Source: Clostridia bacterium (GTDB lineage: Bacteria; Bacillota; Clostridia; UMGS1883). Taken from it: DNA of 64,000 nt. A program made the position numbers and the translations under genes. Below are positions 6,903 through 55,238 of the stretch, in pieces. The DNA lies in the NCBI GenBank assembly GCA_045638945.1, contig JAZUCF010000024.1, positions 25,055 to 89,054 of the forward strand, written 5' to 3'. Below the pieces are notes generated by a model. That model was not told the DNA's origin, did not search any database, and saw only the letters and a list, made by a program, of their open reading frames with translations. The first letter of the stretch is position 1, and the number at the start of each line of letters is the position of its first letter.

Positions 6903-6990
6903 TTTTATCTTTCTGGTGCAGGTAACAGGACTTGAACCTGCATGAAATTGCTCTCATACGGACCTGAACCGTACGCGTCTGCCAATTCCG
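6903..6990 (-). tRNA. tRNA-Leu (anticodon CAG)
   Basis: Reverse complement reads GCAGGTA acceptor, D-arm, anticodon stem TACGG/CCGTA with loop TTCAGGT (CAG), long variable arm, T-arm CAGGTTCAAGTCCTG and a 3' CCA encoded; 88 nt. Confidence 0.85.
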
Positions 6991-7091
6991 CCATACCTGC
7001 ATATTTGATACTTTGATATTATACATCATAAATAATTGAAAATCAAGTGTTTTTTGGGAAAATATTTACCTGAAAGAGGGAGTAAAAACAT

Positions 7092-19802: not shown

Positions 19803-19883
19803 TAGGAATTTGCGTAAATTTAATTCGCATGAAACTGTGTTCGTGCAATGTTCGGGTGCGACGAGAGTGAAGCGGCACGCTTC
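19803..19883 (-). repeat. ~80-bp intergenic repeat family, copy A
   Basis: Ends with GTGAAGCGGCACGCTTC 4 nt from the stop codon of the minus-strand transporter gene; head AATTTGCGTAAATTTAATTCGC resembles copies B and C. Confidence 0.6.
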
Positions 19884-19887
19884 TTTT

Positions 19888-20997
19888 TTACTTAATTATA
19901 ATCATTTCTGAAAGGGTAAGCAGTATTAAAAATCCGAAATTAAACGCCGTAAACATTCCTATATACTGCATTGCCCTTTTGGGATTATACTTTGTGTATT
20001 CACGGAAAGTGATAAGACTTGCCAAGGAAGCAATCAGCGTTCCCACACCGCCGATATTCACCCCTAAAAGAAGCTCTCGGTAGTTGTTTGTGAACTGCGA
20101 CAGCAGTATTGCAGAGGGAACATTGCTTATAATCTGACAGGACAGAATACTAAAGAGCAGCGTGCTTTTACCTAATAGATATTCAAATAAATTCTGAACG
20201 ACTTCAATCCTTGCCATATTTCCTGCAAATATAAAGAAAAATACAAAGGTCAGAAGCAGGGGATAGTCCACCGCTTTAAGTGCTTTTCTGTCCATAAAGA
20301 AGAGTACGGGTGGGATAATAATAAGCCCCGTTATATAAGGAATTGTCCTGAAAACAATCGCGATTGAAAGAATAAAGAGAAGTAAATAGATGAAAGTTCT
20401 CTTTTTGCTAAGCTTGGGCGAAGCATCGTTTATTCTAAGCGGTTCGGGGTGAACAAATATGAAGCAGCAAATGGTTATGATGCTTATTGCAATAACAAAA
20501 GGTGGTGCCATTATTCCCATAAATTCATCGGTGGGAATATTGAATTTGGTGTAAAGAAAAAGATTCTGCGGATTTCCGAAAGGTGTGAGCATACCGCCTA
20601 AATTTGCGGCAATGTTCTGCATAATAAATGTAAAGCACATATACTTTTCTTTATGTGTTGAGCTTAGCACAAAGTAGCCCAGCGGAAGAAAGGTTAAAAG
20701 TGCCATATCATTTGCAATCAGCATTGAGCCGATAAAGGTTATGTATATAATTGCGGTGATTGCCGCACGTGCATTTTTAAAGCATTGTACAATTTTCTGT
20801 GCCAATATATAAAAGAAATTAATATTTTTAAGTGCACACACAACGGCAAGCACACAAAAAAGACAGGTAAGCGACTTAAAATCAAAATATCCGATATATT
20901 CTTTGTCTATTCCCACTATAATGCTTGTAATAAGAGCTGCAAAGAATGCAACAGATAAAACAGCATTGTTTTTCATAAAAGAGGCGATTTTACTCAT
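19888..20997 (-). CDS. Polytopic membrane transporter (ArsB/NhaD-like ion-transporter superfamily, putative)
   Basis: 369 aa, ~10-12 TM segments, PFGNPQNL motif; family assignment is tentative. Confidence 0.45.
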   Translation of the reverse strand: MSKIASFMKNNAVLSVAFFAALITSIIVGIDKEYIGYFDFKSLTCLFCVLAVVCALKNINFFYILAQKIVQCFKNARAAITAIIYITFIGSMLIANDMALLTFLPLGYFVLSSTHKEKYMCFTFIMQNIAANLGGMLTPFGNPQNLFLYTKFNIPTDEFMGIMAPPFVIAISIITICCFIFVHPEPLRINDASPKLSKKRTFIYLLLFILSIAIVFRTIPYITGLIIIPPVLFFMDRKALKAVDYPLLLTFVFFFIFAGNMARIEVVQNLFEYLLGKSTLLFSILSCQIISNVPSAILLSQFTNNYRELLLGVNIGGVGTLIASLASLITFREYTKYNPKRAMQYIGMFTAFNFGFLILLTLSEMIIIK

Positions 20998-48102: not shown

Positions 48103-49485
48103 ATGAAAAAGCATCAAAGAATTACAAGTCTAATAATTATTTTGATACTCTTGTGTTCGTTTTCCTGCACTTCATATGCTGAAAATGAAAATAAAAAAGT
48201 GAATAATTCTTCTGAAACCTCGCAGGAGACCCCTGAAAAAAATACAATTGAGGCAAAGTCGCCCCATGCCGTTTTGATGGACTTAAAAACAGGTTCGATT
48301 ATATATGAGAAAAATTCCAGTGATGCGGTTTATCCCGCGGGGTTAACTAATATAATGACCGCAGTCCTTGTCCTTGAAAACTCTAATATGGAGGAGCTTG
48401 CCACTGCAAGCGAAACGGCTCTTTCCAATGTCTTGCCCGGGGACAACAAAATGGGTATTTTAAAGGAAGAGAAGCTGTCGGTGCGTCAGCTTGTTTACGG
48501 GATGCTTTTAGAGTCTGCCTCCGATGCAGCAAACGTTCTTGCAGAAAAAACAGCAGGCAGTATAGAAGCCTTTGTAAATATGATGAATGCCAGAGCCAAG
48601 GAGCTTGGCATGGAGAAAACAAGCTTCACCAATCCTGCGGGAAACCATGATGACAGACATTATACAACTCCAATGGATATGGCGATTTTAGCAAAGCACG
48701 CTATGTCAATCCCTGAGTTTTGCGATATTGTAAAATGTGATTCCTACACTATTCCTCCAACGGAAAAGAATCCCAATTCAAGAAAGCTTACAAACAGAAA
48801 TCATCTTGTAAGCAGACTTATACGAAATGATTATTATTACGCAAATGCCACAGGGCTTAAAACAGGCTACAGTGCAGAAGCAAAGAGCTGTGTGGCGGCA
48901 TCGGCACAAAAAGGCTCAATGTCACTTTTAGCGTTGGTTTTTGAAGCCGACACAAGCAATAATGTACTGCAAAGCTATGATGACTGCAGAAAGATGTTTG
49001 ATTTTGTGTTTTCAAATTATGTGTCGCAAACTATTGTCAGCGAGGGAGATATAGTAGCACAAACCAATATTATAAATACAAGGCGTGACAATAAAATTAT
49101 TTTAACGGCAGAGAGACCATTATCCGTTATTCGTGAAAAAGATTCCGAGCCTGTGGAGGTCACATATAAGGATTTCGTGAAAAAATCCGTAAGTGCTCCC
49201 GTGAAAAAAGGTGAAAAAATCGGAACGAGAGAGTATTTTGTAAACGGGCAGTCTATAGGAACGCTAAATCTTTTAGCAGAGAAAAATTATAAGCTCGACC
49301 CCGTGACATTCTTTATAAATAAGCTTAAGGCATTTTTTACTTCGCCATGGCTTTATGCGGTCATAGTTTTATTGATAATATTCTTTATTTTAGCGGAAAG
49401 AAGACGAAGAAGAATCCTCCGCAAAAAACGGCGTGACGCCCGCAAAAAAAGAAATCTGGAACTGATTCACAGTATAGACAGCTAA
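48103..49485 (+). CDS. PBP5/D-Ala-D-Ala carboxypeptidase (S11) homolog with degenerate active-site motifs (predicted inactive)
   Basis: Signal peptide; S11 fold. SxxK reads PAGLTNIMT (Ser->Gly, Lys->Asn), SxN reads ESASD (Asn->Ser), KTG retained (LKTGYS). C-terminal TM plus polybasic tail. Confidence 0.7.
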   Translation: MKKHQRITSLIIILILLCSFSCTSYAENENKKVNNSSETSQETPEKNTIEAKSPHAVLMDLKTGSIIYEKNSSDAVYPAGLTNIMTAVLVLENSNMEELATASETALSNVLPGDNKMGILKEEKLSVRQLVYGMLLESASDAANVLAEKTAGSIEAFVNMMNARAKELGMEKTSFTNPAGNHDDRHYTTPMDMAILAKHAMSIPEFCDIVKCDSYTIPPTEKNPNSRKLTNRNHLVSRLIRNDYYYANATGLKTGYSAEAKSCVAASAQKGSMSLLALVFEADTSNNVLQSYDDCRKMFDFVFSNYVSQTIVSEGDIVAQTNIINTRRDNKIILTAERPLSVIREKDSEPVEVTYKDFVKKSVSAPVKKGEKIGTREYFVNGQSIGTLNLLAEKNYKLDPVTFFINKLKAFFTSPWLYAVIVLLIIFFILAERRRRRILRKKRRDARKKRNLELIHSIDS

Positions 49486-49520
49486 CAAAAAACGGCTCAA
49501 TCGAGCCGTTTTTTGTTAGC
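49481..49520. repeat. 40-bp perfect palindrome/terminator; left boundary repeat of the low-GC cassette
   Basis: GCTAACAAAAAACGGCTC-aatc-GAGCCGTTTTTTGTTAGC; its 30-nt core is repeated at 53667-53701. Confidence 0.7.
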
Positions 49521-49546
49521 TTTATGGAGAACTTTCATCTCCCAAA

Positions 49547-53580: not shown

Positions 53581-53662
53581 ATTTTGTCATCTCCCTTCGG
53601 TGACTTCTGCCTAATTCTATCACAAACAACACCTGTTTTCAATAGCTTGAGGTAAAAAAGCC

Positions 53663-53704
53663 CAAGTAAAAAACGGCTCAAATTGAGCCGTTTTTTGTTT
53701 GGAA
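53663..53704. repeat. Palindromic terminator; right boundary repeat of the cassette
   Basis: CCAAGTAAAAAACGGCTCAAATTGAGCCGTTTTTTGTTTGG shares AAAAAACGGCTCAA..GAGCCGTTTTTTGTT with 49481-49520. Confidence 0.7.
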
Positions 53705-53772
53705 ATTTGTGTAATTAAATCGCGAGTAGCTTTTGTCTTAGCCGGTAAGCGACGAGGCTGAAGCGGCACGCC
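53702..53772 (-). repeat. ~80-bp intergenic repeat family, copy B
   Basis: CTGAAGCGGCACGCC abuts the rubrerythrin stop codon; head AAATTTGTGTAATTAAATCGCGAGTAGC resembles copies A and C; shares GCGACGAG with copy A. Confidence 0.6.
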
Positions 53773-54306
53773 TTAATAATTCTCTTTTCTGATTTCAAAG
53801 TATGCCTGAGGATGAGCGCATACGGGGCAAACCTGAGGAGCCTTTTTACCCATTACAAGGTGACCGCAGTTTCTGCATTCCCAGATTGCTTCTTCTGCCT
53901 TTTCAAATACCTTCTGCATTTCCACATTATTAAGAAGTGCACGGTATCTTTCCTCATGTGTCTTTTCGATTGCGGCAACAGCACGAAACTGTGCTGCAAG
54001 AGCGGTAAAGCCTTCTTCCTCAGCTTCTTCAGCAAAGGTCTTATACATATCTGTCCATTCGTAGTTTTCGCCCTCTGCTGCTGCAAGTAGGTTTTCCTTT
54101 GTGCCGCCGAGAAGCTCAAGAGCCTTGAACCAAAGCTTTGCATGCTCCTTTTCATTGTTTGCTGTGTCTTCAAAAATTGCGGCTATCTGCTGGTAGCCTT
54201 CTTTTTTTGCAACGGATGCAAAATAAGTGTACTTGTTTCTTGCCTGTGATTCGCCTGCAAATGCGGCAAGAAGATTTTTTTCGGTTTTTGTTCCTTCAAA
54301 TTTCAT
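53773..54306 (-). CDS. Rubrerythrin
   Basis: Ferritin-like diiron domain (E..H pairs) plus C-terminal rubredoxin-like CRNCGH...CPVCAHP. Confidence 0.9.
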
Positions 54307-54342
54307 TTAAAACACCTCGTTTAATATTATTTTTTAAAAATG

Positions 54343-54363
54343 TAAAATTATTCATTTTACATA
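54343..54363. promoter_or_regulatory. Perfect 8-5-8 palindrome TGTAAAAT-tattc-ATTTTACA upstream of rubrerythrin (candidate operator)
   Basis: Exact inverted repeat 37-57 nt upstream of the rubrerythrin start codon. Confidence 0.45.
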
Positions 54364-54377
54364 ATAAAATCAATTGT

Positions 54378-54656
54378 GTAGTGCAGTAAGACTTGAACAC
54401 CTGTTGTCTCAAACGAATTATTTTTGAAGCCTTTCAACTTGTCGGTTTTGAAGGGCGACAGCCCATCTGCAACCTCCGCATTAAAATCCTTCTAAAAATA
54501 GTTCGTTTGAGATGCGAGCAGTTTTAACAGTGACAATTTTTCTTAAAACAAGGAAAAGGTCGCAGGTAATACTTCCGTATTATCAAGAGCTTTGACACAG
54601 TTTTATGGGAAATTGTCCTGTTAAAACCAATAGGGGTTCAGGTCTTACTGCACTAA
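54378..54656. other. ~275-bp element with terminal inverted repeats and nested long-range complementarity (MITE-like insertion or structured ncRNA), unclassified
   Basis: AGTGCAGTAAGACTTGAAC (54380-54398) vs reverse complement of GTTCAGGTCTTACTGCACT (54636-54654). Inner pairing TCTCAAACGAA (54406-54416) / TTCGTTTGAGA (54502-54512). Right TIR overlaps the engB stop codon. Confidence 0.45.
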
Positions 54657-55238
54657 TTCACAAACTTCATAAATGGCTTCCCAGATATCCTCGCTTCCCA
54701 TACCCGTTTCCGCACTGAATGGCATCATAATGTCATCATCCTCAAGCTCGAGGGTATAGTAAATTTCATCAAGATGATCATTTAGCTTTGTTTTCGGTAT
54801 CTTGTCGCACTTGGTTGCAACCACAAAGGCGAAGCCGTGCCTTTCGCGAATATAATTAAGCATAATCAAATCGTCATTGGTAGGCTTGTGCCTTGCATCA
54901 ACAAGAAGCACTGTGCAGGCAAGGGTTTCACGGCAGTCAAGATATGTTTCAATCATATTGCCCCATTTTTTCTTTTCATCCTTGCTTACCTTTGCATAAC
55001 CGTAGCCGGGTAAATCGACGAAATTTAATGTGTCGTCAATATTGTAGAAATTAATCGTCGCAGTCTTTCCGGGCTTTGAACTGGTTCTTGCAAGGCTTTT
55101 GCGGTTAAGCATCTTGTTAATAAATGAACTTTTTCCCACATTGCTTCGCCCTGCAAATGCAATATCGGGAAAGGGTGTATCGGGATATTGCTTAGGCGAA
55201 ACGGCGGATATTGTAAGGCTTACATTATGAATATTCAT
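54645..55238 (-). CDS. engB: Ribosome biogenesis GTP-binding protein YihA/EngB
   Basis: G1 [10 protein letters not shown]3 DLPGYG, G4 TKCDK. Confidence 0.9.

Follow-up and report, generated by a model that had tools for sequence, protein, structure and literature searches.

The 273-bp segment at positions 54381–54653 of the window (the whole 64,000-nt stretch of Clostridia DNA analyzed here) is very probably a MITE, a non-coding, non-autonomous transposon inserted at a TA dinucleotide within the end of engB. We assign it to this class because it is small, non-coding and bounded by terminal inverted repeats, carries a target duplication, occurs in multiple copies and is polymorphic in its presence. 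Bacterial MITEs have been described as small elements bounded by terminal inverted repeats, with 5′-TA-3′ termini, target duplication and long stem-loops (PMC2229807). The family to which the window copy belongs seems undescribed, and as a kind of object it is ordinary. At 273 bp the element exceeds classic bacterial MITEs (<200 bp), and the structure of its body is more conserved than purely passive filler would require. An earlier note on this DNA had left the choice between a MITE and a structured non-coding RNA; the dispersed copies, the empty site, the TA flanks and a series of deletion derivatives favor the first, and Rfam searches, absence from conspecific contigs and the orientation of the copies speak against the second.

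Architecture of the element

The 19-bp imperfect terminal inverted repeats reported in the earlier note are present: the 19-nt repeat AGTGCAGTAAGAC[T/C]TGAAC occurs at 54380–54398 on the plus strand and at 54636–54654 on the minus strand, two matches in the window compared with 0.02 expected by chance. The true length of the terminal inverted repeat is 28 nt, with 54379–54406 being 89% complementary to 54628–54655. The self-complementary segment as a whole spans 54379–54655, has TA at both flanks, is nearly all paired and takes a Y shape in which the 28-nt terminal stem is joined by two internal hairpins of ~106 nt. An 11-bp inner pairing that had also been recorded turns out to be the base of a 19-nt stem (54407–54425 with 54494–54512, 95% complementary) that closes the first of these, a hairpin of 106 nt (hairpin A, 54407–54512), and the second (hairpin B, 107 nt, 54521–54627) was absent from that account.

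Within this segment, the outermost dinucleotides are the two copies of the duplicated target and the element proper lies between them. The left TA (54379–54380) is placed by the T that precedes AGTGCAG in 22 of 24 copies and by the in-silico excision described below, and the right TA (54654–54655) by the same excision test and by right ends that all read CTGCACTA. The MITE itself reads GTGCAGTAAGAC...GTCTTACTGCAC, and its left terminal inverted repeat (54381–54406), found by repeat and pairing searches, forms stem P1 with the right one (54628–54653). The window copy has at least four stop codons in each of the six frames. The 64-kb window holds one copy of the 273-bp element, and no second copy was found within it.

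Other repeats are also present in the window. A different repeat (347–390, 19850–19893 and 53749–53771) lies directly 3′ of rubrerythrin and of two other minus-strand genes and is composed of a GCGTGCCGCTTCA..TCGT.GC block and, ~40 nt on, an AAATT(T)CC[TA]A[TA]AC block; it has no Rfam match and is presumably the family to which the ‘repeat copy C’ of the earlier note belongs. Two nearly identical hairpins that resemble terminators, with AACAAAAAACGGCTCAAT and its complement as the core, lie 4.2 kb apart at 49480–49521 and 53662–53702.

The engB–rubrerythrin locus and its empty sites

The insertion lies between engB (ysxC/yihA; 54645–55238, minus strand), which encodes a ribosome-biogenesis GTPase of 197 aa (TIGR03598, 219 bits; cut-off 124), and the rubrerythrin gene (53773–54306, minus strand; NF045767, 256 bits), which is downstream of the insertion and outside the element. 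The gene coordinates confirm the previously noted gap of 338 bp between the two. Using the rubrerythrin protein as an anchor to locate empty sites, we found a protein identical to that of the window on 19 public contigs, and all nine of those contigs that reach engB carry a 197-aa engB with a spacer of 63 nt to rubrerythrin, compared with 338 nt in the window. The flanks of these nine contigs are 97–99% identical to the window and the contigs are therefore from the same species. The difference in length, 338 − 63 = 275, equals the 273-bp element plus a 2-bp TA, and in-silico excision that keeps one TA gives a gap-free alignment with the empty alleles, whereas keeping zero or two TAs leaves a gap. 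The junction is less clean than that of an ideal insertion, with 4–5 substitutions relative to the empty alleles clustered in 9 nt beside the insertion, a stretch that is also variable among the empty alleles themselves and is now non-coding in the window. Among the other loci that we fetched, no overlaps were found that would give further pairs of filled and empty sites.

In the mechanism that we propose, a transposase encoded elsewhere would bind both conserved terminal inverted repeats (TA followed by GTGCAGTAAGACYYGAAC...), excise the element and insert it at a TA dinucleotide, and gap repair would duplicate the TA. At this locus the insertion entered the TA of a TTA codon (195), three codons ahead of the engB stop. 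The first bases of the element, GTG CAG TAA, add two residues there and then end the reading frame, such that EngB stays at 197 aa, and the spacer to rubrerythrin grew from 63 to 338 nt. The gene now ends ...GAA TTA GTG CAG TAA, with its stop (54645–54647) inside the right terminal inverted repeat together with the new codons 196–197. That the right repeat supplies the end of engB had been noticed before, and it does so because the insertion went into the TA within codon 195, a leucine codon whose final two bases are the right TA read on the minus strand. As reconstructed, engB before the insertion had the ending ...GAA TTA CAC AAT TGA and likewise encoded 197 aa; its former end, CAC AAT TGA (His-Asn-stop), was identified by in-silico excision at 54370–54378 on the minus strand, where it is displaced and no longer coding. 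The new C-terminus is probably harmless, because the TIGR03598 domain match in EngB stops at residue 189. The exact EngB protein of the window is not on record, as would be expected of an insertion that is recent and confined to this genome, and a scan of JGI metagenomes for the predicted pre-insertion allele (TGTGAATTACACAATTGATTTTATTATG) gave 0 matches.

The 63 nt proximal to rubrerythrin were untouched by the insertion. They include, on the rubrerythrin side of the element and ahead of the start of that gene, an AT-rich palindrome at 54333–54369 (ATGTAAAAT / ATTTTACAT, then a minus-strand T run). The empty-site contigs carry this palindrome with 100% conservation, and it could act as an operator or as a weak terminator. 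One conspecific contig (L004, 942–2357) has lon called as 471 aa, compared with 793 aa, with a differing upstream sequence, and this may reflect a rearrangement or an assembly break.

Dispersed copies, a conserved fold and sister families

Scanning a single genome for each GTDB species for exact matches to the 19-nt terminus gave 40 loci, of which 39 lie in MAGs of uncultured Clostridia/Oscillospiraceae sampled from goat rectum and other animal guts; the additional genomic copies that the earlier note expected of a MITE are thus many. The sole match outside the Clostridia (L011, Iodobacter) was rejected as a chance 19-mer, being a single end with no partner and no model match. At least 14 ends or copies are spread over 11 contigs of the MAG RGIG2973 and at least eight occur in SIG450. 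With nhmmer we recovered 23 full-length copies (274–278 bp, one of 330 bp) that are 62–91% identical to the window copy, and the profile search also placed many copies, some of them truncated, at contig ends, a typical mark of repeats at which assemblies break. Copies are 93–100% identical within a genome and 74% identical on average between genomes, which points to genome-specific bursts. The first 20 positions of the element are invariant or nearly so among copies that are only ~64% identical overall.

The boundaries of the copies read T/AGTGCAG...CTGCACT/A, and where two elements abut, a single TA is common to both (L030 161/162, L043 7505/7506 and L033 5761/5762), as would be expected if the TA were duplicated target outside the element proper. 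Internal-deletion derivatives of 163, 161, 130, 73, ~63 and 50 bp retain the termini. Copies are intergenic or overlap gene ends by 3–24 nt, their orientation relative to neighboring genes goes either way at random, and none of the reading frames stays open throughout the subfamilies.

Two further patterns were seen at these loci. Derivatives of 63–73 bp adjoin homologous Na+-dependent (SNF-type) transporter genes on three contigs (L017 5768–5840, L020 6139–6201 and L035 3103–3165), with the short derivative upstream of the gene in some cases and downstream in others. SIG450 carries another repeat (L034 7573–7708, L045 about 2460–2600 and L039 7684–7747) consisting of several short hairpins, each with TCGATATG/CATATCGA.

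Folding energies for the whole segment are −127.7 kcal/mol on the plus strand (z = −14.9) and −112.3 kcal/mol on the minus strand (z = −10.7), and none of 200 shuffles folded as well. The Y fold is maintained between subfamilies only ~64% identical, with many compensatory changes: across the 23 copies, standard pairs make up 87% of pair cells, compared with 34–50% in controls with the partners slid by 1–3 columns, 33 pairs have changed on both sides, compared with 6–15, and the covariation score is 0.226, compared with 0.04–0.08. By helix, 15 of 39 pairs in hairpin A have changed on both sides across the family, and in hairpin B, helix 7 is 90% paired, with 10 of its 27 pairs changed on both sides.

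The segment could instead be the gene of a structured non-coding RNA (resembling 6S or SRP RNA, or of a new class) whose closing stem overlaps the end of engB by chance, a reading that we consider very unlikely. In its favor are the extreme stability of the fold, the conservation of the Y structure and the better folding of the window copy on the plus strand, by 15 kcal/mol. Over 24 copies, however, the difference between strands ranges from −15 to +11 kcal/mol with no consistent preference; a plus-strand bias hinted at by the alignment, with ~87 G-U cells compared with 18 A-C cells, was set aside on these per-copy results. Rfam 15 run over the whole window at gathering thresholds found only a tRNA (6917–7000), and a search of 54200–54800 on both strands with E up to 10 gave a best E of 1.6, with scores far under gathering, such that neither strand matches a known family. 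The same reading is also opposed by the empty orthologous site on the nine conspecific contigs, by the scatter of many copies through each genome, facing either way with respect to genes, and by the persistence of derivatives that have lost the body and kept the termini; a conserved promoter was looked for and none was seen. The element does share with 6S RNA and other long bacterial ncRNAs a size of about 200–300 nt and a long closing stem, but differs from 6S RNA in having no covariance-model match, in being multi-copy, TA-flanked and polymorphic in presence, and in lying in either orientation. The conserved fold does not make the element an RNA gene: strand preference is inconsistent, and the copies are oriented at random with respect to genes.

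The extensive hairpin potential of both strands also brings to mind REP/BIME-like elements or PATEs derived from IS200/IS605, which would be moved as single strands by a Y1 HUH transposase (RAYT or TnpA), and the searches for a DDE transposase partner, which found none, also count in favor of this reading. Elements of these kinds insert beside a specific tetra- or pentanucleotide and have asymmetric ends with subterminal hairpins, and to our knowledge they have neither matching terminal inverted repeats nor a target duplication. The ends of the element, by contrast, are mirror images over more than 20 bp, a 2-bp TA is duplicated, and no Y1 transposase gene was seen beside any copy, and we regard this origin as highly improbable.

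There are at least two sister families with outer termini of unrelated sequence (GCCAAAACAAAATAGTCC... and CCATCGATTGACAAG...). They are likewise TA-flanked and Y-shaped and share with the window family the motifs TTGTCGG..TTG, TCCGC.T..AAAA and ATACT..CGTATT..CAAG.G.TTT. We distinguished one sister element with the terminus GCCAAAACAAAATAGTCCGAACACG (L043 7506–7780) and another with TA followed by CCATCGATTGACAAG.... (L051, MT837146.1, 379–706) by their TA flanks, Y fold and internal motifs; further sister loci are L033 5761–5880 and L034 7792–7995, the terminus TA followed by CCATCGATTGACAAGAGCAAACACG also occurs, and two sister elements abut copies of the window family. In most MITE superfamilies, the ends are shared and the bodies differ.

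That sister families share the body and not the ends is mildly unusual, and it is the reason for considering a MITE with a functional Y body, in which selection would act on the fold as well as on the termini. The body could serve as a cruciform or single-stranded form in transposition, as a platform for a host factor, or as a transcript that regulates the transposase or neighboring genes. Compensatory changes in all three helices between subfamilies of such low identity are consistent with this idea, as is the retention of the Y shape and internal motifs in the sister families despite their unrelated termini. Pairing in hairpins can, however, persist without selection through templated correction of quasi-palindromes during replication, the short derivatives without a body still exist as TA-flanked copies, there is neither strand bias nor orientation bias, and the sister families may simply share ancestry. 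On balance we think such selection unlikely, and the stronger form of the idea, read from sequence comparison, that the three-helix body would be a functional RNA or folded-DNA module riding on interchangeable transposon ends, we think a little less likely again. If true, the element would be a mobile structured element and not a passive IS deletion derivative, and it would belong to a set of at least three TA-flanked families with a covarying Y core.

Mobilization, related systems and significance

The non-autonomous MITE would depend on an enzyme acting in trans, and from the strict TA duplication we infer that this is probably a DDE transposase of the IS630/Tc1-mariner type. Some other IS groups also produce 2–3-bp duplications, and this assignment is for that reason weaker than that of the element to the MITEs. 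An autonomous partner did not emerge from the genomes that carry the family: none of the 40 loci has two termini at IS-like spacing, no transposase was found beside solo ends, where the neighboring ORFs have housekeeping roles (jag/mnmE, thiamine genes and a Na+ symporter), and an all-against-all comparison of ORFs across the loci yielded no repeated transposase-like or multi-copy protein, MAGs being often without IS copies. Searches of mobile and environmental sequence were likewise negative, with no plasmid match to the element by blastn, 0 matches to the 36-nt terminal inverted repeat in plasmids and phages by blastn with E up to 10, 0 matches to the 20-nt terminus in JGI metagenomes and viral contigs, and 0 matches to the sister-family terminus in a viral scan. 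A 55-nt blastn match among phages proved to belong to a distantly related sister element; the 7.6-kb record that carries it, from human faeces, is unverified. The 42 loci returned by a viral scan for the internal motif GGTAATACTTN{0,1}CCGTATT all proved to be unrelated phage coding sequence with no model match.

Among the known systems closest to the element in description is RUP of Streptococcus pneumoniae, a non-coding, TIR-bounded element of a Firmicute that is TA-flanked, targets TA, folds into a stem-loop and is present in many dispersed intergenic copies (PMC2229807). RUP has been attributed to IS630-Spn1 by the similarity of their TIRs and by TA targets (PMC2229807). It differs in being 107 bp long with short TIRs and a known cognate IS, whereas the element described here has 273 bp, TIRs of 20–28 bp, a three-helix Y fold, hosts among uncultured Oscillospiraceae/Clostridia and no partner found. 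The Correia/NEMIS elements of Neisseria resemble it in their TA duplication, long TIRs (about 24–26 bp), size variants of the internal segment and insertion near or into gene ends, and on the Correia/NEMIS side transcripts with long hairpins are documented (PMC2229807); they differ in their length (107–155 bp), their proteobacterial host and the IHF site and promoter elements described for them. Stowaway-like MITEs of the Tc1/mariner group share the TA duplication, families defined by TIRs and genome-specific bursts, but are eukaryotic and have shared TIRs with varying bodies, whereas here the body is shared and the outer TIR varies.

At the locus itself, the insertion accounts for the unusual 338-nt spacer and for the changed C-terminal end of engB, an essential GTPase gene. 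In a transcript reading through from lon-engB, the stretch before rubrerythrin would form a hairpin of about −110 kcal/mol, which could cause transcription to pause or terminate or could be a target for RNase III; effects of this kind have been reported for other bacterial MITEs. More broadly, the repeat family breaks the assemblies of rumen and gut Clostridia MAGs and provides a marker of presence or absence at the level of strains. The finding leaves the understanding of how MITEs work unchanged, and gives a little-studied lineage of uncultured bacteria a MITE family that is large, highly structured and TA-targeting. It also raises the questions of why the structure of the body is kept across families that differ in their ends, and of whether rubrerythrin is separated by the hairpin from transcription that reads through from lon-engB.
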